64,000 nt of DNA from a bacterium (GCA_031441465.1 JANOEP010000009.1:32001-96000), one strand, 5' to 3'. Counted from the first letter of the stretch, positions 1,374 through 21,301 are shown. The notes: generated by a model from the letters alone, not told the origin. Numbers and translations are program-made.

Positions 1374-1414
1374 CCGACACTTCGAGTGGGCGCAGGGTAG
1401 GTAACCCATAGAGG
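1374..1414 (+). promoter_or_regulatory. Element promoter motif, copy 1 (before packaging operon)
   Basis: CCGACAC-ttcgagtgggcgca-GGGTAGGTAA-cccat-AGAGG. Confidence 0.75.
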
Positions 1415-1462
1415 CACACATTCCGCCCCGAGCGGAGACCGGGTATCGCCCCAGGAGTGACG

Positions 1463-1765
1463 ATGTTCCGCCGCGAGGCGCTCGTACTTGGCAGGTACAA
1501 GCGCGATCCCAACCGCTGGCAGACCGATTTCGGCCGCTGGGTGGCCGATTTCGGCGTGCCTCGCATCGTCGCCGGCCTCGCCCACGACCCGGACCTGCGA
1601 GTCACCAACCAGGCCGTCTACGAGTGGCTCCAGGGCCATGCCCCCCAGCCGGCCCGAGCCATGGCCCTGGTCGAGATGTCCCAGGGCCGTCTCACCCTCG
1701 AGGCCATCTACGAGCACAGCAGGCAGGTTAAGCAGTCAGAGGGCGACACCGGAGGCCAGCGATGA
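1463..1765 (+). CDS. Small Cro-like helix-turn-helix protein
   Basis: RBS AGGAG at 1453; HTH-like segment VTNQAVYEWLQGHAP. Confidence 0.6.
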   Translation: MFRREALVLGRYKRDPNRWQTDFGRWVADFGVPRIVAGLAHDPDLRVTNQAVYEWLQGHAPQPARAMALVEMSQGRLTLEAIYEHSRQVKQSEGDTGGQR

Positions 1766-2427
1766 GGATCGACCTCCAGATCGATTCCGCCCCGCTCGTC
1801 CTGCGCCTGCAGAACGGCCAGCGCCGCCTGGCCTACGCCGTCGTCAACGCCATCAACAACACAGCCAAGCGGATCCAGGCCGTGGAGCGGCGGCGCGTCG
1901 AGGAAGAGTTCACGGTCCGCAAGAAGGAGTTCATCCAGCGCCAGGCGGCAGTCATCAAGCCGTTCGCCAACGTGCGGCAGGGACGTCCCTTCGCAGAGAT
2001 CGGCGTCGGGCAGAAGCCCCGCCTCCTGCTGTCCGCCTTCGAGCGCGGTGCCGAGCGCAAGCCGTTCACGCAGGGCGCCAGGCGGGTGGCCGAGCCCGTG
2101 GTCGGCGGGCCCGCGCGCCCGCAGTTCAGTCAGCAGGTCACGCCCGAGCTACGCATGGCTCGCCTTCGCTTCGACCCCACCAAGACCGGCCGCCGACGCG
2201 CTGGCGTCACGCGCACCAAGACCTACCTCGTGCCTGAGGTTGGGATCTTCCAGCGCGTCAGCCCCGTCGCGACGCGCCTCGTCTACTTCTTCTCGAAGGG
2301 CAAGAAGATCAAACCGCGTCTGCACTTCGTCGAGACGGCAGAGAAGGAAGCCGACCGTTGGTTTCGCGAGGAGATGGAGCGAGAGGTCATCAACGCCATT
2401 GCCAGGTCGAAAGGAAGCGGACTGTGA
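1762..2427 (+). CDS. Basic phage protein, possibly lambda gpZ/neck-like
   Basis: ATGA overlap with the upstream gene; AVVNAINNTAKRIQ resembles gpZ-like N-termini; function uncertain. Confidence 0.5.
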   Translation: MRIDLQIDSAPLVLRLQNGQRRLAYAVVNAINNTAKRIQAVERRRVEEEFTVRKKEFIQRQAAVIKPFANVRQGRPFAEIGVGQKPRLLLSAFERGAERKPFTQGARRVAEPVVGGPARPQFSQQVTPELRMARLRFDPTKTGRRRAGVTRTKTYLVPEVGIFQRVSPVATRLVYFFSKGKKIKPRLHFVETAEKEADRWFREEMEREVINAIARSKGSGL

Positions 2428-3107
2428 CAGGGATGTGTATCACCTGCGGAGCGAATCCACGGAAGAAGGGACGCAGGCAGTGCGGCCCTTGCGCCTGGCG
2501 CTCCGAAGACCCGGACAAGGTGCGTGCGCGTCGCAAACGGAGCGGACCGCAGCGTACCGAGTACAAGCGCCGCGTTCGCCGCGAGGCTGGCGCCGAGCCG
2601 ATGGACGTCAAGCGAGCGCGGCGCGCCCAGCGGCACACTGAGGCTGAAGCCAAACGTGCAGAGCGGTTGGTCGCCAACAGCCTCGAGCGCAAGCCGTGGC
2701 TGCGATTCCCCGCGGACAGTGCCGAGAGATACCGGTGCCGCTACGAGAACGATCCCGCCTTCGCCAGGCGCGAACGGGAGCGGGCCATCGTGTTCCGATA
2801 CACACACCCCGATCTCGCCGTGAAGTCCGATCGGGGCAACCACTGGCAGTGGGCTGCATCACGAGCCGACGGATCGGTGACGAGCGCTGTGGTTCGCAAT
2901 CTCCTGCGAGCCAAGCAGTGCTACCTCTGCGGGGTCGATCTGACGCCCGACAACAGGTCCATCGACCATCGGCACGCACTTGCGCTCGGCGGAGCCCATG
3001 CCGCGGAGAACCTGGCCGCGTGCTGTTTGCCCTGCAACCGGGAGAAGGGTGCTGGGGAGAGGCAGATGCGATGCGAACGCGACGGACACCATTGGCAGCA
3101 GCCGTAA
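2424..3107 (+). CDS. HNH endonuclease
   Basis: CYLC...SIDHRHALALGGAHAAENLAACCLPCNREKG; N-terminal CxxC pairs; GTGA overlap. Confidence 0.85.
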   Translation: MTGMCITCGANPRKKGRRQCGPCAWRSEDPDKVRARRKRSGPQRTEYKRRVRREAGAEPMDVKRARRAQRHTEAEAKRAERLVANSLERKPWLRFPADSAERYRCRYENDPAFARRERERAIVFRYTHPDLAVKSDRGNHWQWAASRADGSVTSAVVRNLLRAKQCYLCGVDLTPDNRSIDHRHALALGGAHAAENLAACCLPCNREKGAGERQMRCERDGHHWQQP

Positions 3108-3119
3108 GTCATTGCAGTT

Positions 3120-3162: not shown

Positions 3163-3184
3163 GCCCTCATAGCGTGGGAGAGTC

Positions 3185-4678
3185 ATGAAACAAGTTACCA
3201 CCGACACCAAACGTTCCAGTTCCGAAACGCCCACGAAGGCCACAGACGCGCCCGAAACGGCCGCCACGGGAGATTCCACGGGCCCGGACTCCCCCGTCCG
3301 TCTGCCCGGAAAACTGGAACACTGGAACATCGACCGGCTCCGCCCCTACGAGCGGAACCCGCGAACCCACAGCCCCGAGCAGATCACCAAGATCGCCGCC
3401 AGCCTGCTTGAGTTCGGCTGGACCAACCCGATCCTGGTGGACGGCGACGCCGGCATCATCGCCGGCCACGGGCGGCTCCTGGCGGCCCGCGAGTTGGGGA
3501 TGACTACCGTCCCGGTGATCGAACTCACACACCTGACCGAGGCACAGAAGCGTGCCTACGTCATCGCCGACAATCGTCTCGCCCTGGATGCGGGCTGGGA
3601 CGAGGACTTGCTGGCCGAGGAGTTGAGGGCGCTGGAGGGCCTCGACTTCAACCTCGAGCTGACCGGGTTCGGCTTGGACGAGCTGCACGATCTCCTCGAC
3701 GATGAGACCATCGAAGAAGTCCCCGCTCCGGAACCTCCCGATGAACCCGTGAGCCAGCAGGGCGATCTGTGGATCCTGGGCAACCACCGCCTCTTGTGCG
3801 GCGATAGCTCCGACGCCGCGTCGCTCGATCGGCTGCTGGGCGGCGCCGTGATCCACCTCGTGAACACCGACCCGCCCTACAACGTGAAGGTCGAGCCTCG
3901 GTCCAACAACGCAATCGCCGCAGGGCTGTCGAGCTTCCCGGCGGCCAAGAGCGCAGTGGAAGCCTCCGACGCTCGCGGCATGCACCACCAGGGGTTCGAC
4001 CTGGCCCGCCACAAGACCAAGTCGAAGCCTACCGGCAAGATGCGCGCGAAGGACCGCCCCCTGGCCAACGACTTCGTCTCGGACGAGGCCTTCGACGAGC
4101 TGCTCCTGGCCTGGTTCGGGAACATCGCCCGCGTGCTGCAGCCCGGTCGCTGCTTCTACATCTGGGGCGGCTACGCCAACTGCGGAAACTACCCCCCGGT
4201 CCTGAAGGCATGCGGGCTCTACTTCAGCCAAGCGATCATCTGGGTGAAGGAACACCCCGTGCTGACCCGCAAGGACTACATGGGTAACCACGAATGGGCG
4301 TTCTACGGCTGGCGCGAAGGGGCGGGGCACAAGTTCTACGGCCCGACGAACGCCGTCGATGTCTGGGCGGTCAAGAAGGTCAACCCACAGAGCATGGTCC
4401 ATTTGACCGAGAAGCCGATCGAACTGGCCGTGCGCGCGATCCAGTACTCCTCAAAGCAAGGTGAGAACGTGCTCGATCTGTTCGGCGGCAGCGGCTCGAC
4501 CCTCATGGGTGCAGACCAGATCGGCCGGCATGCGTTCCTCATGGAACTCGATCCCGCCTACACCGACGTGATCGTGATGCGCTGGCAGGAAGCCACCGGA
4601 CAGCAGGCCACGCTCGACGGAGACGGACGCACGTTCGACGCGGTCGCCGCTGACCGCGGGGCTGCTCGGGATGAGTAG
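3185..4678 (+). CDS. ParB-N domain fused to an N4/N6 DNA methyltransferase
   Basis: ParB motif IIAGHGRLLAA; catalytic TDPPY; HLTEKP; SAM-binding DLFGGSGST. Confidence 0.92.
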   Translation: MKQVTTDTKRSSSETPTKATDAPETAATGDSTGPDSPVRLPGKLEHWNIDRLRPYERNPRTHSPEQITKIAASLLEFGWTNPILVDGDAGIIAGHGRLLAARELGMTTVPVIELTHLTEAQKRAYVIADNRLALDAGWDEDLLAEELRALEGLDFNLELTGFGLDELHDLLDDETIEEVPAPEPPDEPVSQQGDLWILGNHRLLCGDSSDAASLDRLLGGAVIHLVNTDPPYNVKVEPRSNNAIAAGLSSFPAAKSAVEASDARGMHHQGFDLARHKTKSKPTGKMRAKDRPLANDFVSDEAFDELLLAWFGNIARVLQPGRCFYIWGGYANCGNYPPVLKACGLYFSQAIIWVKEHPVLTRKDYMGNHEWAFYGWREGAGHKFYGPTNAVDVWAVKKVNPQSMVHLTEKPIELAVRAIQYSSKQGENVLDLFGGSGSTLMGADQIGRHAFLMELDPAYTDVIVMRWQEATGQQATLDGDGRTFDAVAADRGAARDE

Positions 4679-4681
4679 GCG

Positions 4682-5245
4682 GTGGCCAGGCAAGCGAAGA
4701 AGGAGTTGATCTCCCAGCGCGAGTACGCTCGTCGGCTCGGCGTCTCCCACGTGGCAGTCCAGCGCGCCGTGAAGACGGGCCGGATCTCGACGGTGAATGG
4801 GAAGGTCGACCCGGCCCAGGCCGACCGGCAGTGGCAGGAGAACACCGACCAGAGCAAGCCCCGCAACCGGATCACCGGCAGCCCCAAACAGGCCCGGACG
4901 CCCGGAGAACCGTCTGAGCCCATGGACATGGGCGTGGCCGACGAGGTCATCGGCGGCACCAACACGGCAACCGGCTATGCCAAGGCCCGCGCCCCCCGCG
5001 AGCTGTACCAGGCGCAACTGGCCAAGCTCGAGCTGGACCGTCAACGCGGCACCCTGATCCGGGCCGACGAGGTCCGCATCGGGGCGTTCAACATGGCCCG
5101 CAAGGCCAGAGACCAGTTGATCGCCCTGCCCGAGCGCGTCGCTGCGCTCTTGGCCGCTACCCAGGAGCCCGCCGAGGTCCAACGCATCCTCGAGGAAGAG
5201 ATCGAGCGGATCTGCCAGGAGGTCGCGGATGCAGAACGGCCGTGA
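4682..5245 (+). CDS. terS: Terminase small subunit (Nu1-like)
   Basis: N-terminal HTH (SQREYARRLGVSHVAV), helical C-terminus, overlaps the large subunit gene. Confidence 0.75.
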   Translation: MARQAKKELISQREYARRLGVSHVAVQRAVKTGRISTVNGKVDPAQADRQWQENTDQSKPRNRITGSPKQARTPGEPSEPMDMGVADEVIGGTNTATGYAKARAPRELYQAQLAKLELDRQRGTLIRADEVRIGAFNMARKARDQLIALPERVAALLAATQEPAEVQRILEEEIERICQEVADAERP

Positions 5246-7079: not shown

Positions 7080-7445
7080 CGCATGCGCTGGCGAGAAGTA
7101 GGGACTACGCCGGGTTGGGCGAGATGCGCTGCAAGAAGCGCCCCGGCGTTCCCCACTGATGAAGAATCATATCAGATGCATGTCGAATGTTCAACTGGCG
7201 TGAGGCTCTGCGGCGCGCCGGGGGCGCGGGTTTCCGATTCGAGCTCAGAGCTACCGGCCAAAGGACGCCGACTTGGCGTCTCTGCCGCCCAGGAATTGGC
7301 CCCAAATCACCATTCCTCGCGCCAATCGCAAGACGCTGCAAACAATGCATTTATCTGTTGTTTTGCCTTCCCATTCGGCCCAGAAAGCTCGTCACTGTGA
7401 CTGCGGCGGGCACGGGGCCCGGCGCGCCAGAACTAGGAGAACCCC

Positions 7446-7712: not shown

Positions 7713-7725
7713 GGAGGCCGATCCC

Positions 7726-8248: not shown

Positions 8249-8249
8249 C

Positions 8250-8501: not shown

Positions 8502-8504
8502 ACC

Positions 8505-9307: not shown

Positions 9308-11458
9308 TCAGCCGGCGATGGCTGCTTTCTCCATCAGCCGGTAGAACTGCCCGCCGCCACCGCTGACGATCTCCGTCCGAATCGCGATGTCGCCGCGCTG
9401 TTCCAAGGTGCTGATCAGGACGCGGAAAGTCTTGGCGTCGATCTTCATTCGCTTCAGGAGCACGCTGTGGGACAGCTCGCCACCTGGTGCCGTCCGCAGC
9501 TTGCGCAGGAGCTTGAGGCATTCAGCATGGAAGGGATTCTCGGCCACGTGGGATTGGGCCATGAACAGCATGCGGCGAGCCTGGTGGATAGCGAATCGGC
9601 TCGCCCAGTCCGCAGCCTCGCGCCCGATCTCGGGATTCAGATGGTTCTCGCTGACCGCGTAGATCAGCGCAAGCTTGCGCGCGTGCTCGGCGACCCGACC
9701 CCACAACGCCGTGCCGGCCGAATCGCCGACGCCCTCGGCTCGCGCATACTCCTGCTCGGCCTCACCACGCGCTTCGTCGAGGACCGTTCGCGCTGCTTCT
9801 GTTTGCGGCACGATCAAGGGCACGGGGTGCCAGTCCTGTAGGTTCCCGGTTCCGGGCCGGAAATCGGCCCACCATCGCGCCGTCTGCAGGACGCTGTCAG
9901 GGACCGGATGAATCCCCGGCGCCCGCCCTTGTGACCGAGTTCCGCACTCGAGGATGATCGTCCGCGCGAAGAACCCGTTGGTCAACATGCGCTCCGAGAG
10001 CGCCTCATAGTAGTGGTTCGGGATGGCCGTACCGAAGACCACCAGGCAAGGCTGGTCAATCGCGCCAGGCGTGTCACGACCGGCTTTACGCCGCATGGGG
10101 AAGATCGAGTTAGCCGTCGAGAACATCGTCAGCAGTGTGCCCATGATGTTCTCGTGCCGGGCATCGCGAGACTTGTTGATCGACTGCAACATGCCGTCGA
10201 TCTCGTCTGTCTGAAACAGCATGCACGGTTCTGTGAGGAGAGCATCTTGAACCCCTTCTCCGGACGCGAACCGGCCGCCGACCTGGTCGGACAACCCGAC
10301 AGCATGCAGTATCTCGGTATTCAGCTTGCGTGGCCGGTCTTTGCCGGCCGAGGAGAGAGCCAAGCCGAGCAAGTATAGGTTGGTCCGGTTGTCGTCCGGG
10401 TCGCGGACCTTTCGTCCCGCCAGTACACCCAGCAGGGCAAGAGCACCAGCGAACGCCAGCACCACGTTGGGGTATGGAGCGGTGGCCAGGCAGTGGTCCA
10501 TGACCTCGGACACGAATCCAGGGATGCGCAGCAACTCGTCAGGAATCGGGCCGGGATCGACCAGCGCCGGTGCCGGATCCTCGGCCGGGGTGGCCATCTC
10601 GGCGTCCTGTCCCCAGTGGTTTTCGGCCACTGCGACGGCGACCTGGTCGGGCTCGTAGCTGGCGACGCTGGCGGCGATCCGTTCGACTTCCCGCCCGGTC
10701 ACTGGCGGCCGGCAGCGGTCCTGGTTGGCCCGCGTCAGGGCGACCAGGATCTCCTCCTGGCTCATCCCCACCCGGCGCATGGCCCCGCCCAGGCGCGCCA
10801 ACGTGGCGTTCCGTTGGCCGGTTGGTATCACATTGCCACCGGCCGCCGGCGTCGCGCCCTGGGGCGCCACGAGTGCGCCGTGGGCCGCCACCTGGCCGTC
10901 CTCAGCGGGCCGTTTGCCTCCCTGGACAAAGAGGTCCGCTCCGCCGTCGACCTGGGCCGCGAGCCACGCGGGGGACTCAGGCTGATCGGCCGGCCCAGTC
11001 TCGATAGCCTTGATCCACTGGTACGGCTTGCCGCCCACCACCGAGGGCGGCAGGACGATGTAGCCTCCGTTGGCCCGGGTGTCGACCTTCGGGGCGAGCC
11101 GACCCGCGGTGCTGCTCCAGCTCTTGCCCGCCGGCTGCCGGAAGATGTAGTGCCGGCCGCCGCGAGGGGTCAGCGAGACCGGGCATTCTCCGAGCGCCTC
11201 GAGGTCATCGCCAGGCCAGGGGTTGTCAGCCCCGTCGACGTCGACGACCAGGAGGCCGGCGGTCGGCATGCCGATGTTCGCGTCCGGCCGCGCCGTCCAC
11301 CAAGCCGTGATCTGGCCGGCATCCGTCGTGGCGTCCAGGAACCCATGCGGCGTCGCGGGGGCTTTTCCGCACGGAATGCACGGAAAGACCGGGTACCCGA
11401 GCTCCGCATACCTCAACGCCGCCTGCAGCATCTTCCCGTTGGATTCGCCCACAAGCAC
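9308..11458 (-). CDS. Bifunctional primase/polymerase (Prim-Pol, PriCT, DUF3987-like C-terminus)
   Basis: YAELGYPVFPC, ANIG...VVDVD, TPRGGRHYIF, DTRANGGYIVLPPS, GQRNATL; start uncertain. Confidence 0.88.
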   Translation of the reverse strand: MLVGESNGKMLQAALRYAELGYPVFPCIPCGKAPATPHGFLDATTDAGQITAWWTARPDANIGMPTAGLLVVDVDGADNPWPGDDLEALGECPVSLTPRGGRHYIFRQPAGKSWSSTAGRLAPKVDTRANGGYIVLPPSVVGGKPYQWIKAIETGPADQPESPAWLAAQVDGGADLFVQGGKRPAEDGQVAAHGALVAPQGATPAAGGNVIPTGQRNATLARLGGAMRRVGMSQEEILVALTRANQDRCRPPVTGREVERIAASVASYEPDQVAVAVAENHWGQDAEMATPAEDPAPALVDPGPIPDELLRIPGFVSEVMDHCLATAPYPNVVLAFAGALALLGVLAGRKVRDPDDNRTNLYLLGLALSSAGKDRPRKLNTEILHAVGLSDQVGGRFASGEGVQDALLTEPCMLFQTDEIDGMLQSINKSRDARHENIMGTLLTMFSTANSIFPMRRKAGRDTPGAIDQPCLVVFGTAIPNHYYEALSERMLTNGFFARTIILECGTRSQGRAPGIHPVPDSVLQTARWWADFRPGTGNLQDWHPVPLIVPQTEAARTVLDEARGEAEQEYARAEGVGDSAGTALWGRVAEHARKLALIYAVSENHLNPEIGREAADWASRFAIHQARRMLFMAQSHVAENPFHAECLKLLRKLRTAPGGELSHSVLLKRMKIDAKTFRVLISTLEQRGDIAIRTEIVSGGGGQFYRLMEKAAIAG

Positions 11459-11469
11459 CTACTTCAAGG

Positions 11470-13191
11470 TCAGAAGGGTAGATCGTCATCATCCAGCGGG
11501 TCGTAGGCACCCGCGGAGCCACCGGCCAGGACTCCGGTCGGCTCGCGGTCGTCGTCCATCCCCGGTTCGCGCCAGGCGGGCCTGTCATCCAGCTCGTAGC
11601 CGATGATCCGCGGGAACTGGTCACCAACCACGGTGCGCACGGTGATCGAGCGGGTCCGGCACAGTGCGCCGTCGTTGGCCAGCAACTCAGCCACGGCCGC
11701 AGTCCGCGGCGCCGGAGCGGTCGACCTGCGCCGCCACCACGATTCGGCCTTCTGGCGGGCCCAGCCGGTATGTTCGAAGCAGATCCACTCGGACTGGTGC
11801 TGGTGAAAGCCGGTTTGGTACTCGACCCGCAGGGTCTTGGGCGCATCCTCTGGAGCGCCCTTCTTGCTGTGGATGCTGTAGAAGACCTCACGCACGTCGT
11901 GGACCGTGGTCGTCACCTCGCCCGAGAGAATGCCCTCAGTAGACGCGGTCGCCTCGTGCTGCCGCCGGTCGGGAGGCGGGAACTCGTAGCCGCAATCCGG
12001 GCACACGGCGTAGCCGGCGGCGATCAGGCTCTGGCACTCAGGGCACTGCTTGGCCGGCGCCTCGCCGTTGCCGCGATGGTTGACGGCCTGTATCCGGATG
12101 GCGTCGACAGGTCCGTGCCGCAGCACATTCCCGCCGAAGTCCAGAACCAGGCAGTTCTCCTTGCCCGCGTTCAGGCGGAATCCGCGACCAACCATCTGAT
12201 AGTAGAGCCCCGGCGACAACGTCGGCCGCACCATGGCCACGCAGTCGATGTTCGGCGCGTCGAATCCCATGGTCAGCACGTTGACGTTGACCAGGTACTT
12301 GATCCTGCCGGCCTTGAACTCGGCCAGGACCCGGTCGCGCTCCTCGGTCGCGGTCTCGCCGAAGACGGTGGCCACCGTCTCGTTCCCCATCCTGCGCAAG
12401 ACCGCGGCGACATGCTCGCCATGCTGGACTCCGGTGGTGAACACGAGGACCGAGTGCCGCCCCTGGGTCTGCTCGACGATCTCCCGGCAGGCCGACTCGA
12501 CGAGCTCGTCGGTGTCCATGAGGTCCTCGGCCTCGCCGGCCACGAACTCGCCCGCGCGCACATGCAGACCCGAAGTGTCCAGCGGCTGGGCACACCCCTT
12601 GGTGATCAACGGGCAGAGGTAGCCCTGGATGATCAGTTCCTTCACGCCAATCTCGTAGCAGACCTCGTTCAGGACGTTACCAGGCTCGCAGATCATTCCG
12701 CTCTTCATCCGAAACGGTGTCGCGGTCAGCCCGATCACCCGCAGGTTGGGATTCACCTTGCGGGCGTCCTCCAGAAAGGTCCGGTACATCCCGTCCCCGT
12801 CCGGGGGAATCATGTGCGCCTCGTCGATGATCACCAGGTCGAAGGCGTCGAGCTCGCAGGCCCGTCGGTAGACCGACTGGATCCCCGCAATGATGATCGG
12901 GTGCTCAGTGTCCCTGCTCTTCAGACCCGCTGAGTAGATCCCGGTCTTCATCCACATCTCAGGCGCCACGACGTGGATCTTGTCCAGCGCCTGCTCGAGC
13001 AGCTCCTTGACGTGGGCCAGGATCAGGACACGGCCGCCCCAACGCCCAACGGCATCCCTGCAGACCGTGGCCATAACGGGAGTTTTGCCCCCACCTGTCG
13101 GAATCACCACGCAGGGATTGTCGTCGCGTTCGCGCAGGTGGCTGTAGATCGCAGCCACCGCCTCCTGTTGGTAGGGCCTGAGCTCAAGCAC
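11470..13191 (-). CDS. SF2 DEAH-box helicase with zinc finger (RadD/YejH-like)
   Basis: LRPYQ, PTGGGKT, DEAH, TATP, QMVGRGFR, CPEC/CPDC. Confidence 0.92.
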   Translation of the reverse strand: MLELRPYQQEAVAAIYSHLRERDDNPCVVIPTGGGKTPVMATVCRDAVGRWGGRVLILAHVKELLEQALDKIHVVAPEMWMKTGIYSAGLKSRDTEHPIIIAGIQSVYRRACELDAFDLVIIDEAHMIPPDGDGMYRTFLEDARKVNPNLRVIGLTATPFRMKSGMICEPGNVLNEVCYEIGVKELIIQGYLCPLITKGCAQPLDTSGLHVRAGEFVAGEAEDLMDTDELVESACREIVEQTQGRHSVLVFTTGVQHGEHVAAVLRRMGNETVATVFGETATEERDRVLAEFKAGRIKYLVNVNVLTMGFDAPNIDCVAMVRPTLSPGLYYQMVGRGFRLNAGKENCLVLDFGGNVLRHGPVDAIRIQAVNHRGNGEAPAKQCPECQSLIAAGYAVCPDCGYEFPPPDRRQHEATASTEGILSGEVTTTVHDVREVFYSIHSKKGAPEDAPKTLRVEYQTGFHQHQSEWICFEHTGWARQKAESWWRRRSTAPAPRTAAVAELLANDGALCRTRSITVRTVVGDQFPRIIGYELDDRPAWREPGMDDDREPTGVLAGGSAGAYDPLDDDDLPF

Positions 13192-13537
13192 TTCGGACTT
13201 CCTCCAGGCGCACCAGAGTGCGGCCGCCGCGGACGCACCCGCACATCTCGATGTTCAGCTTCTTGATCTGGCTGTCGTCGGCGTACAGGCCGCCGTGCTG
13301 GAGCGCATCAAGAAGGGCCTTTTGCAAATTGTCTGCATCGCGACGCTGGTGATTGGGCGGGTAGACTTCGATCTCCATGCGCAGCGGACCCCGCAAGCCG
13401 CCGACTCCGAGGCCGGCGAGGATGGCGCAGACCCGTTCGCGGAACCTGCGCCCCTCGCGGCTGATGAGCGTCCGGTGACCAACGCGCCGGTAGTAGTGGT
13501 TCACCGACGGCGGAAACGGCAGCTCGATCTCGATCAT
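13184..13537 (-). CDS. rusA: RusA-family Holliday junction resolvase
   Basis: LPFPPSVNHY, RRDADNLQKALLDAL, DDSQI. Confidence 0.9.
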   Translation of the reverse strand: MIEIELPFPPSVNHYYRRVGHRTLISREGRRFRERVCAILAGLGVGGLRGPLRMEIEVYPPNHQRRDADNLQKALLDALQHGGLYADDSQIKKLNIEMCGCVRGGRTLVRLEEVRSA

Positions 13538-13989
13538 CGGCGGGCCCAAGGCGGGGTGCTTGTCGCCTCCTGCTGAGGCACGCCCGCGGCGGCGTCCTTG
13601 CGGGCGTAGCCGCGGATCTCGTTGACCACGTCACCGGTGTCGTCGCGTTTCTTGCATTTCACCGTGATCACCAGAGGCAGGTTGTGCAGTTCGATCGAAT
13701 CCTTGGGCTGCAGCACGCCGATCGCGCGGCAGAGAGCCGACAGTTCGCCCTGGGCGATCTGGACGGCCTGCCGGTTCGGATTGTCCAGGTTGAGCCGCGA
13801 CCAGAGCAGCCGGTTCTTGAACGGCCCGTCGATCACCTGGAACGTGAGCTCCAGATAGTGACCGGCACCGCTCTTGGTCGGCTTCATCTGCGAGTCGGTG
13901 ATGATGGCGATGTACTTGCCCGCGGGCAGCGGCTCGAAATCGGTCGCGGGGTCGACGTTGTTGGCGTCAAAGCCGTTGAGATTTGCCAT
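13534..13989 (-). CDS. DUF669-like single-stranded DNA-binding protein
   Basis: DFEPLPAGKY...YLELTFQVIDG, C-terminal PPW. Confidence 0.75.
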   Translation of the reverse strand: MANLNGFDANNVDPATDFEPLPAGKYIAIITDSQMKPTKSGAGHYLELTFQVIDGPFKNRLLWSRLNLDNPNRQAVQIAQGELSALCRAIGVLQPKDSIELHNLPLVITVKCKKRDDTGDVVNEIRGYARKDAAAGVPQQEATSTPPWARR

Positions 13990-13991
13990 GG

Positions 13992-14774
13992 CTACTTCGC
14001 TCCTTTGCTCTTGCCGCCCTGCGGCGCGACGATCGGTTCGGTGGTCATGTGCTGGGCGTAGACGTTCCAGTCCAGCGGCATCTCTTCGGGGAGACTCAGG
14101 CGGTTCTTGGCCACGTGGGCGGGGCGCTCGACCGTACGCAGGACGCGCTCGCCAGTGCCGATGCCCTGGTTGCGTTTGCGGTCGAAGCCCTCGTCGGTCT
14201 GCTTGGTGAAGACCTTGAACGTGGCGAACAGGACCTCGTCGCACCACTCCTGCAGGACTTGGGATGCCAGGCGGTGCAGACGTGGCACGTAGCGGTCGTA
14301 GCTATCGGTCTCGGGGTTCTCGAAACGCTCGATCCGGGCGTGGGCGATCAGAACCGTCGTCATGCCCTTGTCGCTGCGCAGCGCGGACAGGCCCTCGAGG
14401 AACTCGCGCCATTGCGACATGGCGAACACGTAGCCCTTGGCGTAGCCGATGTCCTCGATGCTCTCGACGTTTCGCTTGCGGCAGACGTCGGTCCAGATAA
14501 GGCGTTCCAGCCAGTCCAGCGAATCCACCACAACGGTTCGATAGGGGTGCTCGTCGGTGTAGAGCTCCGACAGGGCCTGCATGGCCTGATCGAACGTCGT
14601 GGTGACCGGGAACTTGGCGCAGTTGATCTCGCCGAGGCCATCCTCGGTTTGAATGAACACGGGCTTCGGTGCGCACGATGCGAAGGTCGACTTCCCGATG
14701 CCGTGGGTGCCGTAGAGCATCACCCGTCTCGGGGCCGGACCTCGTCCGCTGGTGACTTGCTGCAGAAGCTTCAC
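13992..14774 (-). CDS. Phage ATP-binding protein (AAA_24/Sak4-like)
   Basis: YGTHGIGKST Walker A, VVDSLDWLE; RBS AAGGAG before GTG. Confidence 0.85.
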   Translation of the reverse strand: MKLLQQVTSGRGPAPRRVMLYGTHGIGKSTFASCAPKPVFIQTEDGLGEINCAKFPVTTTFDQAMQALSELYTDEHPYRTVVVDSLDWLERLIWTDVCRKRNVESIEDIGYAKGYVFAMSQWREFLEGLSALRSDKGMTTVLIAHARIERFENPETDSYDRYVPRLHRLASQVLQEWCDEVLFATFKVFTKQTDEGFDRKRNQGIGTGERVLRTVERPAHVAKNRLSLPEEMPLDWNVYAQHMTTEPIVAPQGGKSKGAK

Positions 14775-14805
14775 GGTCGCATCTCCTTTCCGGTTGAGAT
14801 TGGTT

Positions 14806-14877
14806 GGGAAGCGGGCGGACCCAGGGAGTCCCGACGCGCTCGGGCGACAGCGCGTCACGCCATTCCGCCCGCTCCCC
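14806..14877 (-). ncRNA. Candidate intergenic structured RNA
   Basis: 14-bp outer stem and 8-bp inner stem; one G-U pair valid only on the - strand. Confidence 0.4.
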
Positions 14878-14884
14878 TTGGCGT

Positions 14885-15712
14885 TCAGATCCAGTCGAAG
14901 TCGCGGATGTCCTCGTAGCCGGTGAGCCACTCGTCCCGCTCTCGGCAGTCGATCAGGCGCGCGATGCCTTCCTCGTTCTCCTTCTGGGCGAGCCCGAGAA
15001 CCTCCTCGCTGATCCTCCAGACGCCGCAGCGCACGGGTTCGCGCTTCTCCACGGCGATCATGTAGACGGGGAGGTTCGTGCCGGTGAGGAAGGCGATCAC
15101 GGATCGGTAGAAGGCCAGCTGGTGAGCGTAGCCGTAGGCGCGCGCATCCGTCTGAAGCCAGTCGATGTTCTCGCAGGTCTTCAGGTCGACGATCCCGCGC
15201 TCGGGATTCAGCCAGTCCAGACGCGACTGGCATGGCAGGCCGCAGTACGTCGCCCGCACCACGCCTTCGGGGACACCGTCAGCCAGAAGAGCCGAGGCGT
15301 GCTTGTGGGTCTGCACCGACGCGTTGAGACCTTCGATCAGGGCTGCCTGCTCGTCATCGAGCACGGGCTTGCCCTGCTCGTCCGCCCAGTCCTGGAAGGC
15401 CTTTGTGCGGCTGCCGAACGGCTGGCCGGTCCTCGGGTTGATCGGCCCGCCGAAGGCGTAGGTCTGCTCGTAGACCTCGCGGCCTTCGAGGATCAGGACA
15501 TGCGCAGCGCGGCCGACGACGTACGCCGGGCGGTCCTGGTCTTGCACCAGTCCGAGGTGCTTCTTGTGGTAGAGCAGCGGGTTGCGCCGGAACTCGGCCA
15601 GCATGTGGCTGGACAGGTACTTGCCAGCCTGGGCGTGGTACACGTCGGCCGGTTCGCAGATCAGGTCCTGGACGCTCCACGCGCGTCGCTTGAAGACTTC
15701 TGGCAGGTTCAT
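14885..15712 (-). CDS. PD-(D/E)xK exonuclease (RecE/ExoVIII, DUF3799-like)
   Basis: YHA...LSSH, GRAAHVLILE, RLDWL...IVDLKT, YAHQLAFY. Confidence 0.85.
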   Translation of the reverse strand: MNLPEVFKRRAWSVQDLICEPADVYHAQAGKYLSSHMLAEFRRNPLLYHKKHLGLVQDQDRPAYVVGRAAHVLILEGREVYEQTYAFGGPINPRTGQPFGSRTKAFQDWADEQGKPVLDDEQAALIEGLNASVQTHKHASALLADGVPEGVVRATYCGLPCQSRLDWLNPERGIVDLKTCENIDWLQTDARAYGYAHQLAFYRSVIAFLTGTNLPVYMIAVEKREPVRCGVWRISEEVLGLAQKENEEGIARLIDCRERDEWLTGYEDIRDFDWI

Positions 15713-16014
15713 GAGTTGAGGTCCTCCGTTTCCGTCTTGGGCATGCGCTCGACGCGGCTGACCGAAAAGGCCCCCTCGCCGAACTCCCGGATGGCAAAAC
15801 CCGTGAAGATGCGGCTGATGTCCTGACCGACGACCGTGTCGGCATCGATCACGCAGGCGTGTTTCTCGGCGTCGAAGCAGTACTTCGCGTCGAGCCTCAC
15901 CCGCGACTTCCCGTGCAGGCCCTCGACCGCCATCACGGCCAGGAGCAGGGTGCTCTCGATCTCGTCTGCCGGCGCGGTGGCCTCGAACTCGTAGCGGTGG
16001 ATTTCTCGGTTCAT
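15709..16014 (-). CDS. Hypothetical protein
   Basis: RBS AGAGGA; ATGA overlap with the next gene. Confidence 0.75.
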   Translation of the reverse strand: MNREIHRYEFEATAPADEIESTLLLAVMAVEGLHGKSRVRLDAKYCFDAEKHACVIDADTVVGQDISRIFTGFAIREFGEGAFSVSRVERMPKTETEDLNS

Positions 16015-16049: not shown

Positions 16050-16090
16050 CCGCTGAGGGTTACTTACCCTGTCCCTTGCCGAGGTGTCGG
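16050..16090 (-). promoter_or_regulatory. Element promoter motif, copy 2 (before replication operon)
   Basis: CCGACAC-ctcggcaagggaca-GGGTAAGTAA-ccctc-AGCGG; overlaps the sigma gene stop codon. Confidence 0.75.
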
Positions 16091-16683: not shown

Positions 16684-16704
16684 CGGAACCTCTTTTGAGG
16701 CCGC

Positions 16705-16813
16705 GGAGAGGCGCAAGGGTGTCGCACGAGGCAGCGCATAGACCGGCGTGGCGGAGGCGCACGTGGTTCGCCGTTACGGCGACACCCACATGCACCTCCA
16801 CCTTGTGGCCGGT
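16705..16813 (-). ncRNA. Candidate cis-regulatory leader RNA with alternative pairings
   Basis: Long hairpin 16742-16813 with three G-U pairs valid only on the - strand; competing complement at 16708-16725. Confidence 0.5.
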
Positions 16814-16868
16814 TGTATGTCTGGTGACGATCAGTCAGGGATGAGTGCGGGGCGGCCAGCCCCTCGGG

Positions 16869-17195
16869 TCAGGCGGCGGCTTCCTCCACCTGCATGCGGA
16901 AGGGCAGGCCGTGCTTGACCTCCAGGCAACGCACCGTCGCGTTGCCAAGGGAGGCAAACGTGTCCATGAGTTCCTGGACGCTCGACTTCAGAGCGAAGTC
17001 GGTGAGCCCGGCTTCGGAACGACGACCATTGCCGGCGCCGAACTTCACGTCCCGGACAACGCGAGGACGAGGTTTGAGCACCGGCAGGCCGTCGCGGATC
17101 ACGAGCCCTTCGATGATGCCGAAATCGAGCTTCTGCATCAGTCCGACGAGCTCGACCTGGGCTGGCAAGAGTGCGGATTTCCTGGGAGGCTTCAT
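16869..17195 (-). CDS. Hypothetical protein (108 aa)
   Basis: RBS AGGAAGGA before ATG 17195; globular-looking composition. Confidence 0.7.
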   Translation of the reverse strand: MKPPRKSALLPAQVELVGLMQKLDFGIIEGLVIRDGLPVLKPRPRVVRDVKFGAGNGRRSEAGLTDFALKSSVQELMDTFASLGNATVRCLEVKHGLPFRMQVEEAAA

Positions 17196-17293
17196 GGAGG
17201 ATCCTTCCTGCTGTTGGTGTCCTGGGGATAACCTGTGCGTAACCTGTGGCCTAAACACTAAACGCTGTGGACCAAAAAAAGGGGTTGGGGACA

Positions 17294-18013: not shown

Positions 18014-18379
18014 TCAGGACTTCCTCTTCATGTACCGTATGGTTCGTTCGAGATCCTCGGCGGTAAAGCCGCGGTCACGTGCCGCTCGCAGTAGGTCGGC
18101 CATCGCCCTGGGCTCGGACTTGATGATTTCATCGAGCTCCGGGTCGGTCTTGCCGGCCAGCGCCAGCAATTCATCGGCATCGACTTCGAGCAGTGCGGCC
18201 ATCGTGATGATGTGCTCTGCTCTCGGCGGATCGAATTCTCCGGTTTCGATCTTGCTCAGGAACGTGGCGCTTATACCGACTTTCTGTGCGAACTGCCTGA
18301 GGGAAAAAGTGGGATCGACCGCCTTCTTCGCCTCGCGGAGATCACGAATCCGCTGCCCGAATCTTAGGTTTCCTGCCAT
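18014..18379 (-). CDS. XRE-family HTH repressor (ImmR-like)
   Basis: FGQRIRDLRE...SLRQFAQKVGISATFLSKIETG. Confidence 0.9.
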   Translation of the reverse strand: MAGNLRFGQRIRDLREAKKAVDPTFSLRQFAQKVGISATFLSKIETGEFDPPRAEHIITMAALLEVDADELLALAGKTDPELDEIIKSEPRAMADLLRAARDRGFTAEDLERTIRYMKRKS

Positions 18380-18558
18380 GGTTTCACCGCCTTCCTCTTG
18401 CCGAACGGCCTGGGTGACGCGCTCGGTCTGTCGGACATCGCCGCCCGTTCATGTTCAGTTAATACTACACACAAGCTCGGCCGTCAAGGGTGTGTGATCT
18501 GATCGCGGTCGGTCTGTTGTGAAATAACAAGTTAGGGTTTTTGCCCTGCGCCCTAGAG

Positions 18559-18969
18559 TCAGTCCGGGACCCCCGCCTTGAGGTCCCGCCACATCACCCG
18601 CTGCTTCCGCCAGTCCGGAACCGCGGCGATCGGCCGGACCATCTTCTCGCCGACGGGGGCCCGGCCGCCATCCGAGCGGGGCAGGTACAGGATCTCCTCC
18701 TGGATGTCCGGAGCCAGGAGAACCAGGCTCATGATCTGCGTCATGCGGGCGCGCGTCACCAGCTGCAAGCGGGCCAGCTCGGCGTAATCGGCGACTTCCC
18801 CTTGCCGATGGAGGTCCGCCATGTGGATCGCCAAGGCCATCACGCGCGAGATGCGAGGCACGCCGCCCAGAGCCGGCGGGTTCGCCTTGACCCCTTCCTG
18901 AATCACCTTCCTGCCACGCTTCATACTCCGGAAATGGACTTCCTTCGTGATCTTCAGCGGCCGTGTCAT
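18559..18969 (-). CDS. Recombinase-associated small HTH-like protein
   Basis: YAELARLQLVTRARMTQIMSL; translationally coupled to the recombinase. Confidence 0.7.
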   Translation of the reverse strand: MTRPLKITKEVHFRSMKRGRKVIQEGVKANPPALGGVPRISRVMALAIHMADLHRQGEVADYAELARLQLVTRARMTQIMSLVLLAPDIQEEILYLPRSDGGRAPVGEKMVRPIAAVPDWRKQRVMWRDLKAGVPD

Positions 18970-20519
18970 GCGTTCTCCTCCGCGTACTCGCGCGACAACA
19001 TCTCGATGCCCGCCGGGTGGAAGGTCACCGCCACCGTTCCCTTGTCGCCGTCGTAGTCCACGCGCTGGATCAAGAGTCGCAGCACCCGCGCCTGCTCGCG
19101 CAGCGTGAGCGTCTCCCAGACAGGATCGAAGGCGGCCATCGCTCGGGCGGCCTCTTTCTCGTCGATCAGATCCCGCCCCAAGGTGGCCATCTCCTCCCGG
19201 ATCTCAGCCAGGCGCAGCTCCACGCCACGAATGCGATCCAACAGGTCAGCCATGCGGTCGGTGGCCGTGCCGCCAGAACCGACCGAACCCGCCAGGTCGC
19301 GCATCTGGGCGTTGTGGCGCCTCAGTTCGCGCGTCAGACCCGACTTCTCAGCCTCGAGCTCCTTGATCCGCGCCTTGGCCTCTGCCCGCGCTCCACCCAG
19401 CGTCTCGGCCAGGAGCGCTGGATCGCTCCCGATGCAACGCACCTGGTCGATGACGAACTTCTCGATCTCGCCGGCGGGGATCGCCTTCGACGGGCAGTTG
19501 TGCCAGCCGCGCTTCTGGGCGTTGGCGCAGACGTAGTACCGGTAGCGCCGGTCCTTCTTGGTGGCGTGGGTCGGCACCATGGCGCAGTTGCACGGCACGC
19601 AATTGATCAGGCCCTTGAGGATGGCGCCGAACTGGTTGCAAACGTGCCTGCCGCCATTGGCCCCGTTGCGCCCCAGGATCTGCCTGACGCGGCGGAACGT
19701 CTCGTCGTCCACGATCGCCGGTTGCTCCCCGGCGTGAATCTCGTCCTTGTAGGTCGACCGGCCGGTATAGAGGACATTGGTCAACAGGCAGTAGAGGCTG
19801 TGCTTGTTGAAGGGCGAGCCGCCGGATTCGCGGCCCTTCCTGGTGGTCCACTGCTTGTTGGTCCACCCCCGCGCGTCCAGCTCCGCAATGGTGGCGATGA
19901 GCGACTCGCGGTCCAGGTAAAGCTCGTAGATGGCCCGCACGTGGGTGGCCTCCGCCTCGTTGACCAGCAGGCGGCCGCCTCGAGGATCGACGTCGAAACC
20001 GAGGATCGGCCGCCCACCGGACCACTTCCCCTTGCGGCGGGTCGCAGCGATCTTGTCGCGCGTGCGCTCGGAGATGATCTCCCGCTCGAACTGCGCGAAC
20101 GACAGCAGGATGTTCAGGGTCAGCCGACCCATGGAACTAGTCGTGTTGAACTGCTGCGTCACAGAGACGAAGGAGACGCCGCGCTTGTCGAGGGCTTCCA
20201 TGATCCGGGTGAAGTCCAGCAGGCTGCGCGACAACCGGTCGACCTTGTAGACCACGATGCAGTCGATCCGCCCGGCCTCGACGTCGGCCATCAGGCGCTT
20301 GAACGCTGGGCGTTCCATGTTGCCGCCAGTGTAGCCACCGTCATCGTATCGGTCCGGCAGGCAGACCCACCCCTCGCTCTTCTGGCTGGCAATGAAGGCC
20401 TCGCCGGCCTCGCGCTGGGCGTCGAGGCTGTTGAACTCCTGCTCGAGCCCTTCCTCTGTGCTCTTGCGGGTGTAGGTGGCGCAGCGAATGGTCGGGGTGC
20501 CCGTCCTCCTACCGGCCAT
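18966..20519 (-). CDS. Large serine recombinase (resolvase, recombinase and zinc-ribbon domains)
   Basis: YTRKST, VDRLSRS, FAQFEREIISER, CVPC...YYVC...C. Confidence 0.93.
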   Translation of the reverse strand: MAGRRTGTPTIRCATYTRKSTEEGLEQEFNSLDAQREAGEAFIASQKSEGWVCLPDRYDDGGYTGGNMERPAFKRLMADVEAGRIDCIVVYKVDRLSRSLLDFTRIMEALDKRGVSFVSVTQQFNTTSSMGRLTLNILLSFAQFEREIISERTRDKIAATRRKGKWSGGRPILGFDVDPRGGRLLVNEAEATHVRAIYELYLDRESLIATIAELDARGWTNKQWTTRKGRESGGSPFNKHSLYCLLTNVLYTGRSTYKDEIHAGEQPAIVDDETFRRVRQILGRNGANGGRHVCNQFGAILKGLINCVPCNCAMVPTHATKKDRRYRYYVCANAQKRGWHNCPSKAIPAGEIEKFVIDQVRCIGSDPALLAETLGGARAEAKARIKELEAEKSGLTRELRRHNAQMRDLAGSVGSGGTATDRMADLLDRIRGVELRLAEIREEMATLGRDLIDEKEAARAMAAFDPVWETLTLREQARVLRLLIQRVDYDGDKGTVAVTFHPAGIEMLSREYAEENA

Positions 20520-21009
20520 CGGCGCACCCCTTTTCAACCAAATTGAAGAACCCGAACCCATTCCAGTGGGTGCCCGTGACCTTCTTGGCCACGGCGCTCA
20601 AGGTCCGGTAGATGTCGCCCTCGTACTCGAACCCCTTTGGTAGGACCCGCACCTCGATGACCTGGCCCTTGTAGCGGCGTGTGATGATCGCGCCGGGCAT
20701 GGGCAGGCGGTCGTCCTGGGGGAATTCGATGGGAGCGGTTGCGGTCACGCCGCCGGGCACGACGGCCCGCGGCCTCGGTGCGGTCAGGCGGACGTCCGAC
20801 TCGGTGGCCAGTTCCCGGGCCCGCTGCCGGGCACGCTCGGACAAATCGCCCTCCTGGTTGACCTGCAAGCGCCAGACGATCCGGCGGATCAGGAACTCCT
20901 TGTGACGGGAGGCCGTGTCCTCGCCAAAGACCTCGGCGTACTTCCTCCGCAGCTCCGGCACCGTCATGCGCTTCAACGCGGTGATTTCCTTCCCGATGTT
21001 CAACGCCAT
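20509..21009 (-). CDS. DUF2924-like protein
   Basis: ELRRKYAEVFG, IVWRLQ, PGAIITRRYKG, TLSAVAKKVTGTHWNGFGFFNL. Confidence 0.85.
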   Translation of the reverse strand: MALNIGKEITALKRMTVPELRRKYAEVFGEDTASRHKEFLIRRIVWRLQVNQEGDLSERARQRARELATESDVRLTAPRPRAVVPGGVTATAPIEFPQDDRLPMPGAIITRRYKGQVIEVRVLPKGFEYEGDIYRTLSAVAKKVTGTHWNGFGFFNLVEKGCADGR

Positions 21010-21022
21010 GGTGCATCTCCTC

Positions 21023-21235
21023 TCATGTTCTCGGCTCGGCTAACCAGGACACATGAGGGTCGCCGGGCGCGGACACATCAAGGGCTTTCTGGTCGGTGGA
21101 ATCGGGCGCGGAATCGCATGCTTCCGGCGGGTTCGTGCATGCGGTGCGCAGGCGGAGCAGGCCGCGGCCAAGGATGGCGGCGACCTCCTGACGGTGCTGC
21201 GTTGGGGTCAGATCATCGGGGATTGAATGCTGCAA
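21023..21235 (-). CDS. Small hypothetical protein
   Basis: RBS GGAGG before TTG; EVAAILGRGLLRLR helix. Confidence 0.5.
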   Translation of the reverse strand: MQHSIPDDLTPTQHRQEVAAILGRGLLRLRTACTNPPEACDSAPDSTDQKALDVSAPGDPHVSWLAEPRT

Positions 21236-21260
21236 GGGTCGCCTCCGGGTAACGGTAACA

Positions 21261-21301
21261 CCTCTGGTGTTTACCTACCCGGAGACAGTTGAATGTGTCG
21301 G
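21261..21301 (-). promoter_or_regulatory. Element promoter motif, copy 3 (before recombinase operon)
   Basis: CCGACAC-attcaactgtctcc-GGGTAGGTAA-acacc-AGAGG. Confidence 0.75.

Follow-up and report, generated by a model that had tools for sequence, protein, structure and literature searches.

Mobile elements that bring their own sigma factor follow a well-established principle, which is extended here to an integrated element of about 20 kb in a bacterial genome (GCA_031441465.1, JANOEP010000009.1:32001-96000; this whole stretch of 64,000 nucleotides is called the window, and all positions are counted from its first letter). Three copies of one bipartite motif, named P1, P2 and P3, lie in this element ahead of its packaging, replication/recombination and excision/integration genes, and, judged from sequence comparison, they are probably the promoters of an extracytoplasmic function (ECF)-type sigma factor encoded by the element itself, which would give it a private regulon for these three functions. 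A preprint (Gomberg and Grossman, bioRxiv 10.64898/2026.10.01.756105) describes Sig7-8 of Tn916 as an element-encoded, autoactivated sigma factor that switches on the main promoter of Tn916, is needed for excision, is split into two subunits and uses one autoactivated promoter upstream of its own genes. The two systems have in common a mobile element's own sigma factor that activates one or more element promoters, an activity that is predicted here. They differ in that the present factor is a single protein of 207 amino acids (aa) to which three promoters are assigned, while the sigma gene itself has no such promoter immediately ahead of it, in that the element carries terminase and replication genes and no conjugation genes, and in that its control is apparently repressor-based (Xre/ImmA-like) with an RNA leader in addition.

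SigN of the Bacillus subtilis plasmid pBS32 is named in that preprint as another mobile-element sigma factor (bioRxiv 10.64898/2026.10.01.756105). The present protein belongs to a different protein family and a different host phylum, and for the element in the window a DNA-damage trigger is presumed only. Sigma factors are also encoded by phages, such as SPO1 (gp28, gp33/34) and T4 (gp55/gp33) in the preprint (bioRxiv 10.64898/2026.10.01.756105), and phiEco32 and 7-11 in a further article (PMC4331800). The likeness is that a virus-encoded sigma factor sends the host core RNA polymerase to a private consensus ahead of viral gene blocks; those factors come from complete viruses or a tailocin-like element and serve mostly late structural genes, whereas here recombinase, replication and terminase genes are concerned, capsid and tail genes are lacking, and two of the promoters stand at the element ends. 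Xpf of PBSX is the sigma factor of such a tailocin-like element. Known ECF promoters include TGAAAC-N16-CGTA, recognized by sigma-W of B. subtilis, and GGAACTT-N16-TCAAA, recognized by sigma-E of Escherichia coli. The present system resembles the ECF (group 4) type in having what is apparently a two-domain sigma factor (region 2 and a putative region 4) and a rigid bipartite candidate promoter with a GTA-containing -10 part about 15-16 nt from the -35 part. It differs in its 10-nt -10 region GGGTAnGTAA followed by a conserved CAGAGG, in its -35 part CCGACAC, which is not of the AAC type, and in a long inter-domain linker; in addition, neither of the neighbouring gene products, orf108 and Orf101, which have no family match in Pfam, PHROGs or TIGR02937-type models, has been identified as an anti-sigma partner.

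In ICEBs1, ImmR and ImmA form an immunity module divergent from the induced operon. The integrated element in the window likewise has an Xre-family helix-turn-helix (HTH) gene side by side with one for an M78 (ImmA/IrrE) peptidase, in the neighbourhood of the recombinase; both genes are co-directional with their surroundings, the target would be the sigma cassette and not a structural operon, and cleavage is predicted. Phage satellites, among them PICI, cfPICI, P4-like elements and PLE, are similar in being islands of about 20 kb that carry replication and packaging genes of their own, together with a recombinase and a repressor module, and lack a full virion set. The element in the window differs from them in combining TerS, a gpA-type TerL and HNH with no capsid or portal genes, and in carrying a serine recombinase with DUF2924 and its own sigma factor. 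A literature search of limited coverage found no description of this sigma family, of the motif or of a satellite-encoded sigma factor. One ECF-type sigma factor that serves excision, replication and packaging through three promoters of identical core would appear to be new, as are candidate outer promoters at the element ends facing inward, a covarying structured leader and the finding that a complete prophage of myovirus type has the same cassette. The most original leads are the leader RNA and the end-located promoters.

The motif copies, the gene blocks and the sigma cassette are arranged as follows.

1374..1414, plus strand: P1, the left-end motif copy, directed into the packaging block; 47.1 bits
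1464..8759, plus strand: packaging block (Pfam, PHROGs)
9308..16014, minus strand: replication/recombination block after P2, convergent with the packaging block (Pfam, PHROGs)
16050..16090, minus strand: P2 motif copy, overlapping the last 10 sigma codons and the stop codon, directed into Orf101; 48.7 bits
16060..16683, minus strand: ECF-type sigma gene, 207 aa, ATG at 16683 (Sigma70_r2, TIGR02937, PHROG)
16684..16869, core 16713-16827, minus strand: structured leader, non-coding, between orf108 and the sigma gene
16870..17195, minus strand: orf108 (108 aa), always ahead of the leader and the sigma gene
18559..21235, minus strand: excision/integration block after P3 (Pfam, PHROGs)
21261..21301, minus strand: P3, the right-end motif copy, directed into the recombinase block; 51.7 bits

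The core pattern CCGACAC-N14-GGGTA(A/G)GTAA has three exact matches in the window, at 1374-1404 (+), 16060-16090 (-) and 21271-21301 (-), and with the addition of N5-AG(A/C)GG the full 41-nt motif occupies 1374-1414 (+), 16050-16090 (-) and 21261-21301 (-); an earlier reading of the sequence alone had placed three copies at these positions and strands, with 14-nt spacers of dissimilar sequence, and is borne out in each respect. No fourth copy is found in the window with up to two mismatches allowed, and none of 100 dinucleotide-preserving shuffles gave any match. The complete genome assembly (3,492,914 bases, 74 contigs) holds the same three copies only at two or fewer mismatches, with no match to the reversed pattern as a control; GGGTA[AG]GTAA occurs three times in it, each time within a motif copy, and CCGACAC alone 905 times. 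With a position weight matrix (PWM) made from 38 distinct copies, all sites in the rest of the window score below 12 bits, the next best site in the genome reaches 17.9 bits (contig C16, 839-879), and the reversed genome yields a single match above the 8-bit threshold, at 11.4 bits, so that the rarity in the host genome on which the earlier reading depended holds on scanning (three copies in 3.49 Mb). In C16:1-900 this degenerate site stands before a truncated second copy of the 100-aa gene that follows P1, and it is therefore regarded as a remnant of a related element elsewhere in the genome.

The geometry of the motif is rigid, with 36 matches at N14 and none at N8-N13 or N15-N21 in 589,568 bases of related loci. 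From GTAA to the start codon the distance is 59 nt at P1 (ATG 1464; 52 nt to GTG 1457), 45 nt at P2 (ATG 16014) and 35 nt at P3 (TTG 21235), a range of 35-59 nt that comes close to the 35-58 nt first proposed. The assignment of the third copy to a DUF2924-recombinase operon was right as to the operon, the first gene of which is an open reading frame (ORF) of 70 codons, DUF2924 being the second. As claimed, the second copy overlaps the sigma stop codon (TAA 16060-16062), and this raises the possibility that the motif has no regulatory function and reflects a coding constraint at the sigma C-terminus together with chance or duplicated DNA. Close sigma homologs indeed end in a tail ..SRH..K..GK* that is encoded by the motif (CCGACAC...GGTAAGTAA), and conservation of P2 may reflect this SRH..GK* tail. 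Distant homologs, in contrast, end earlier, lack the tail and carry the motif as non-coding DNA after the stop codon, which shows that DNA and not peptide is conserved at P2. Since P1 and P3 are moreover non-coding, the shuffles gave no match, and the spacing is invariant while the spacer sequence varies, an absence of function is hardly credible.

Related DNA was gathered from reference genomes, IMG/VR and other genomes, and a relaxed-pattern scan gave 53 matches, which are not all independent, as some come from overlapping records. Twenty-four stand before Orf101 homologs, 13 before the small P3 ORF or DUF2924 and nine before the P1 gene; six have no recognized gene and one has too little flank. 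With one of the nine P1-type matches false (it lies inside the P1 gene), the true cases are 45 of 53, and all assigned matches are co-oriented with the gene. P1 orthologs precede the same 100-aa gene in seven other contigs or records; the P3 offset, with homology projected to the first residue, is 38 from motif position 30 in 10 of 13 copies (12 of the 13 being outside the window), and the P2 offset is 46-48 within the close clade. The scan thus upholds the proposed conservation of the motif before the same three orthologous first genes. Several positions left free in the search pattern are kept among the 38 distinct copies (T9 in 33, C10 in 31, C20 in 31, A31 in 29, A37 in 31 and G38 in 31), and they define an extended consensus CCGACACnTCGa...C(c)GGGTAnGTAA.C..cAGAGG; spacers and upstream flanks diverge between elements, and the spacer columns are low in information.

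Five other element-carrying genomes contain 14 matches at one or no mismatch on six contigs, with none for the reversed pattern. The copies among these that were followed up all lie in the element, one of them (G062:C115) being the packaging end of the element in G062; two more copies, in G063:C3, at 69206 (where the contig ends, ahead of a P3-type ORF) and at 10879, have not been linked to an element. In two genomes, G011 and G013, the DUF669 gene, which is SSB-like (single-strand DNA-binding), is preceded by an additional copy inside the element. A motif-first scan of metagenomes returned 119 stretches, and among the 80 listed, which were examined, 43 matches stand before homologs of the same genes (four P1, 12 P2, 27 P3). 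On another contig of G062 (C255, locus L046, 15967-18874) three tandem P3-type copies occur within 3 kb, each followed by a partial small P3 ORF; they could be remnants of element ends stacked on one another, or insertions nested at a single site.

The presumed reader of the motif is recognized as a sigma factor by TIGR02937 (sigma70-ECF; 62.6 bits against a cut-off of 42.9, E 3.2e-17, residues 17-174), by Pfam Sigma70_r2 (33.6 bits against a cut-off of 24, 3.3e-8) and by the PHROG sigma families 1740 and 351. In its AlphaFold2 (AF2) model, helical blocks at 13-99 and 138-199 are joined by a low-confidence, disordered linker at about 100-137; with 207 aa and two such blocks, the protein would consist of regions 2 and 4 only, without region 1.1 or 3. 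A Foldseek search of the PDB with this model returned sigma factors as the top matches (a B. subtilis SigH model, SigH and SigE of Mycobacterium tuberculosis, and AlgU). Whole-model alignments to 6koo_F and 6in7_B gave E about 1e-3 and a template-modelling (TM) score of about 0.3, the low score against ECF sigma chains being due to a different domain orientation. Homologs number 159 at E<=1e-3 among 1070 database candidates, and in its own genome the gene is the sole match to the sigma query (E<=0.001). Its immediate downstream neighbour Orf101 could be a sigma partner, an anti-sigma factor or a replication factor, and a complex prediction for the two proteins scored 0.00 against a mark of 0.32, a value that is not evidence either way.

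The tie between protein and motif is seen in their distribution and covariation. Among 208 genomes of the class to which the window belongs, the strict motif occurs in 14 (the reversed control gives three matches), the sigma gene (profile A1, E<=1e-8) in 13 and both in nine, which are descriptive counts. The four genomes with the sigma gene only (G013, G051, G184 and G203) all carry diverged motifs, such as CCGTCAC-N14-CGGTAGATAA and CCGACAC-N14-CCGTATCC, immediately downstream of the sigma stop codon, and the proposed co-occurrence with the sigma gene is thus found. Those with the motif only comprise a decayed remnant in which the recombinase gene is cut short (a 166-aa ORF) and adjoins an ORF that is transposase-like by eye (G181), a contig of 3.3 kb (G017), a match at a contig end (G142), and two single matches without the extended consensus that look like chance (G088 and G090). 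A motif variant directly after the sigma stop codon is kept in relatives down to 28-36% identity. Some variants are private to one element and common to its copies: the element at locus L024, with a sigma factor 50% identical, has CCGACGC...GGGTATGTAT in three of three copies, and position 22 is C instead of G in two of two copies in G011 and three of three in G013. Such covariation implies that the reader is encoded by the element. The cassette also occurs outside the capsid-less elements, in a 42-kb IMG/VR record of a myovirus-type complete prophage with portal, MuF, protease, sheath, tape-measure and baseplate genes (G214, loci L085-L087), which carries orf108, the leader, the sigma gene, the promoter variant CCGTCAT-N14-GTGTATGTAT, Orf101 and PrimPol and thereby shows that the sigma family is not confined to them.

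The earlier claim that the sigma-like protein reads the motif and turns on all three operons therefore stands in part: promoter-like placement (45 of 53), co-occurrence, element-private variants and the TIGR02937 match speak for it. Several points weigh on the other side. Start site, promoter activity and sigma dependence are all predictions, and the support is comparative throughout. The Pfam scan gave no Sigma70_r4 match on the sigma protein, and the -35 part CCGACAC is not the AAC-type element of classical ECF promoters. The co-occurrence counts overstate the support because related genomes are not independent. In the metagenome scan the other 37 of the 80 matches have no gene assignment, some resembling divergent family members and some chance, and by a rough estimate many chance matches are to be expected for a 33-bit pattern in such a collection. 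In G214 and G215, which are more remote carriers of the cassette, only the copy after the sigma gene is detectable, so that a three-promoter regulon is not general. Finally, P1 and P3 are inverted at the extreme ends of the element, where end sites bound by a recombinase would look the same. Should the sigma-regulon reading be true, one sigma factor and one 41-nt promoter would make up a self-contained transcription programme of a mobile element in an uncultured high-GC bacterial lineage, and, because the host genome has no other copy, they would form an orthogonal sigma/promoter pair with very low background. The motif would also help in annotating a recurrent kind of 'incomplete provirus' in metagenomes; in addition, the leader may control sigma synthesis, and the outer promoters would fall on the very ends of an element that has a serine recombinase for its movement.

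Two registers can be laid on the motif. An ECF-like one, with CCGACAC as the -35 part, 15-16 nt, GGTA as the -10 part and a start just after or near the end of GTAA, fits, as does a canonical one with CGACAC, 17 nt and TA(A/G)GTA, in which GGG immediately precedes the -10 part and transcription would begin at A37, the conserved A of CAGAGG. P3 copies have, after GTAA, a small inverted repeat (A/T)CACC-AGA(GA)-GGTG(T/A), both sides of which change in some elements, and this hairpin, if transcribed, favours the earlier start. For comparison, 18 of the 51 host tRNA genes have TTGACA (up to two mismatches, mostly exact)-N16-18-TAnnnT within 150 nt upstream, a count made without a chance control. 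The possible -10 hexamer of the motif, TA(G/A)GTA, has no terminal T, and its possible -35 hexamer reads CCGACA; with a -10 part that departs from the TTGACA/TAnnnT form of the host tRNA promoters, the motif does not appear to be a host housekeeping promoter. A scan of the element for host sigma-70-type promoters gave three sites against 2.3±1.5 expected, no excess over chance. One of these 18 genes, tRNA-Asn at 26897-26971 (-), neighbours the element, about 5.6 kb past the P3 end and beyond the Qat genes described below, and has a promoter-like site TTGACA-N17-TATCGT at 27029-27057 (-).

These registers bear on the view that the motif is a promoter, or a promoter plus operator, with some other reader, be it a host alternative sigma factor, a helper-phage factor or a DNA-binding protein of the element working with the host holoenzyme. 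The canonical register CGACAC-N17-TA(A/G)GTA resembles a sigma-70-type layout, and position and orientation show promoter-like placement, which does not tell which protein reads the motif. The element encodes further DNA-binding candidates, of which the HTH-like product of the first P1 gene and the Xre-type repressor could serve, and G214 and G215 have the sigma gene and yet a single motif copy. The motif, however, lacks the dyad symmetry usual for operators of HTH dimers, and its most conserved location family-wide is immediately after the sigma gene; a regulon of a host sigma factor is made less likely by the lack of further copies in the host genome, and the sole sigma-query match in that genome is the element's own gene. 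Another reader is accordingly judged unlikely, and the element's own sigma factor is preferred.

P1 and P3 lie at the extreme ends of the DNA common to the elements, inverted and facing inward. Homology between elements stops at CCGACAC or about 17-60 nt upstream of it, and the upstream flanks are unrelated between most elements: in G063 the stop codon of a host ORF lies 17 nt before the -35 part of P1, and G061 and G062 only have about 60 nt in common upstream of P3. Directly outside the P3 end of the window's element lies a complete QatABCD anti-phage defence system (QatD, QatC, QatB, QatA; 21419-26083, minus strand; PADLOC E 7e-87 to 3e-161), the DNA of which has a lower G+C than the host and no motif copy ahead of its genes. 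In G061 TetR and efflux genes take the place of QatABCD; this replacement, together with the ends at P1 and P3, puts the core element at about 1374-21301. A search for an empty site with both flanks in six genomes of the same genus gave no usable match, and direct repeats were absent at >=8 nt between the two junction regions and at >=11 nt between the left end and the tRNA region.

Large serine integrases have att sites made of bipartite half-sites, and the copies at 1374 and 21301 could be terminal inverted repeats, that is, P/P' half-sites of the large serine recombinase with or without DUF2924, in which case the bipartite shape would reflect two DNA-binding domains of the recombinase and the promoter placement would be incidental. 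The outer copies do lie at the very ends, facing inward, element homology does end near CCGACAC, excision to a circle would bring the two copies together as a long inverted repeat centred on the joint, and the tandem P3-type copies in G062 may be read as end remnants. On the other hand, a third copy, the best conserved in the family, follows the sigma gene in every relative, 5.2 kb from the element end in the window; G011 and G013 have extra internal copies; P1 and P3 are no more alike outside the common core than either is to P2; and the prophage in G214 keeps its copy after the sigma gene, away from any end. Because of the internal copy in every relative, the fourth copy in G011 and G013 and the copy in G214, half-sites as the whole explanation are rated as very improbable. 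The two roles are not exclusive, and promoters at the ends could overlap att arms.

None of the three motif copies precedes the sigma gene, and a sigma-type promoter sought upstream of the sigma leader was not found, the only trace being a partial GCGACAC without a -10 part. The leader itself, which fills the 170-186 nt from orf108 to the sigma gene, surpasses the adjoining coding DNA in conservation, has a fold z-score of -4.78 against shuffles and is recognizable where the sigma factors are only 31-52% identical. In 18 sequences, counted on an RNAalifold structure to which we added four anti-Shine-Dalgarno/Shine-Dalgarno pairs, 94.8% of the cells are paired against 90.7±0.6 in shuffles, and eight pairs are changed on both sides against 3.1±1.0, a number that none of 500 shuffles reaches; with the structure slid by 1-3 columns, 31-56% are paired. 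A helix GUGGGUGYCG : CGRCACCC (strands GUGGGUGUCG/CGACACCC) is paired in 18 of 18 sequences with two covarying positions, and the last hairpin covers the Shine-Dalgarno sequence and the sigma start codon. In single-sequence folds part of GUGGG lies instead in a long local hairpin, also with compensating changes, and a switch between two folds, or a pseudoknot, is possible.

A covariance model of the leader (R1) gives 121.9 bits on the window's leader and 95-111 bits before the sigma gene in G214, G215 and G216, matches that arise by construction, as G214 and G215 are in the training alignment and G216 is nearly identical to the L023 row. Within the window's family R1 matches 10 of 91 genomes, nine of them among the 10 sigma-positive genomes and the tenth being G020; most of the strong matches are the training set. 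Weaker matches (18-38 bits, E<=0.05) are found right after the motif in 14 of the 80 metagenome loci (L102, L105, L111, L123, L130 and nine others). In the four of these 14 loci that were read, the leader match is the 5' leader of a P3-type operon with its small ORF, and in three of the four (L105, L123, L130) GUGGGC can pair next to the ribosome-binding site; the leader RNA module seems to be reused before P3-type operons. An Rfam search over 1-28000 gave tRNA-Asn and a sub-threshold microRNA match, regarded as chance, and none for the leader. The leader may be a new cis-regulatory RNA and probably adds post-transcriptional control of the sigma factor.

Upstream of the leader, orf108 has homologs at the same position in 17 aligned relatives, and its AF2 model (predicted local distance difference test, pLDDT, 88.5) shows a duplicated helix plus beta-hairpin, with no Foldseek PDB match at E<=0.001 and a best VIA-align Z of 3.2. 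Control of the cassette would start from the genes further upstream on the same strand.

17196..17293, minus strand: intergenic region after the ImmA-like gene, with a stem followed by T8 (terminator-like) and repeats CACAGGTTA, kept in close relatives
17294-17989, minus strand: ImmA-like M78 peptidase (Peptidase_M78 8.7e-9)
18014-18379, minus strand: Xre-type HTH gene, repressor candidate (HTH_31 7.5e-12)

The intergenic region 17196..17293 is a candidate repressor-controlled early promoter/operator for orf108 and the sigma gene. At 18380-18558 (-), ahead of the HTH gene, TTGACG-N17-TATTAA flanked by an inverted repeat CACACA...TGTGTG can be seen by eye, and this stretch is a candidate autoregulated repressor promoter; the scripted pattern TTGACA/TAnnnT has no match there. 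An ImmA/ImmR derepression trigger, as put forward in the sequence-only reading, is plausible from the presence of the adjacent Xre-type HTH and M78 peptidase genes, which is the evidence for it. In the quiescent state, the Xre-type repressor and the ImmA-like protease would keep the early promoter of orf108 and the sigma gene shut; upon induction, both genes would be transcribed, the structured leader would hide the ribosome-binding site as an extra gate on sigma translation, and the sigma factor, once made, would fire P3, P2 and P1.

A wider proposal joins these strands into a portable sigma cassette acting as master switch, a new class of leader RNA, and terminal promoters coupled to attP. 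The cassette (orf108, leader, ECF-type sigma factor, promoter, orf101) would then switch both capsid-less, terminase-carrying satellites, as a family not described before, and their parent phages, and sigma translation would be gated by the leader as a cis-regulatory RNA of a new class. After excision P1 and P3 would stand back-to-back across attP. Transcription for excision and packaging would in this way be tied physically to the site of recombination, and would depend on whether the element is integrated or excised. Taken as a whole, this proposal is possible and rather doubtful.

As to the nature of the element, no capsid, portal, protease or tail family was found among the called ORFs in 1-26083 with Pfam and PHROGs, apart from one phrog_1924 label, and packaging would thus need a helper. 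In G061 and G063 P3 and P1 are again about 20 kb apart, and the P2-P1 distance is about 15 kb in G216 and G217; gene calls in G061, the one relative in which gene content was checked, show the ORFs in an unchanged order and none between the ends that is as large as a structural gene; and IMG/VR classes such records as proviruses, 43-49% complete. Together these features point to a conserved capsid-less family and not to a single decayed prophage. With recombinase, regulation, replication and packaging genes and, in these libraries, no capsid, portal or tail genes, the element has the gene set of a satellite, and it is best described as satellite-like or as a reduced derivative, its helper dependence being predicted only. 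Nearly identical elements (L016, L022, L023) are found on contigs of 8-19 kb in bins labelled Desulfocapsa, Verrucomicrobia and Planctomycetota, which could result from mis-binning of a mobile element or from a truly wide host range.

The packaging block after P1 contains the following genes, among which the 221-aa ORF bears the sole structural-sounding label in the element.

1464-1765, plus strand: first gene of the block, 100-aa ORF with an HTH-like product, starting at ATG 1464
1762-2427, plus strand: 221-aa ORF, phrog_1924 'minor tail protein' (3.8e-13)
within 2358-3107, plus strand: HNH gene (HNH_5 1.7e-7)
3185-4678, plus strand: ParB-N6 DNA methyltransferase (N6_N4_Mtase 5.6e-24)
4682-5245, plus strand: TerS (phrog_57 7.6e-33)
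5229-7079, plus strand: gpA-type TerL (GpA_ATPase 6.2e-90, GpA_nuclease 2.4e-86, phrog_15 1e-239)
7083-8759, plus strand: four small ORFs with no family match (Pfam, PHROGs)

The replication/recombination block that runs towards it from P2, assigned with Pfam and PHROGs, opens with Orf101.

15709-16014, minus strand: Orf101 (101 aa), first gene after P2; homologs follow the sigma gene in every relative examined
14885-15712, minus strand: PDDEXK/ExoVIII-like nuclease
about 13992-14880, minus strand: Sak4-like ATPase
13534 to about 13990, minus strand: DUF669 SSB-like gene
13184-13549, minus strand: RusA
11470-13191, minus strand: helicase
9308-11458, minus strand: PrimPol-DUF3987

Orf101 has no family match; in relatives down to 34% identity it invariably comes first behind the sigma gene and the promoter there. 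The excision/integration block after P3 comprises four genes.

21023-21235, minus strand: 70-aa ORF, first gene after P3, start TTG 21235
20509-21009, minus strand: DUF2924 (Pfam 1.1e-39)
18966-20561, minus strand: large serine recombinase (Resolvase 1e-37, with Recombinase and Zn_ribbon_recom)
18559-18969, minus strand: 136-aa ORF (phrog_14161)

The G+C content is 61-67% over the first 28 kb of the window (1-28 kb), which include the element and the Qat genes, and 67-76% beyond.

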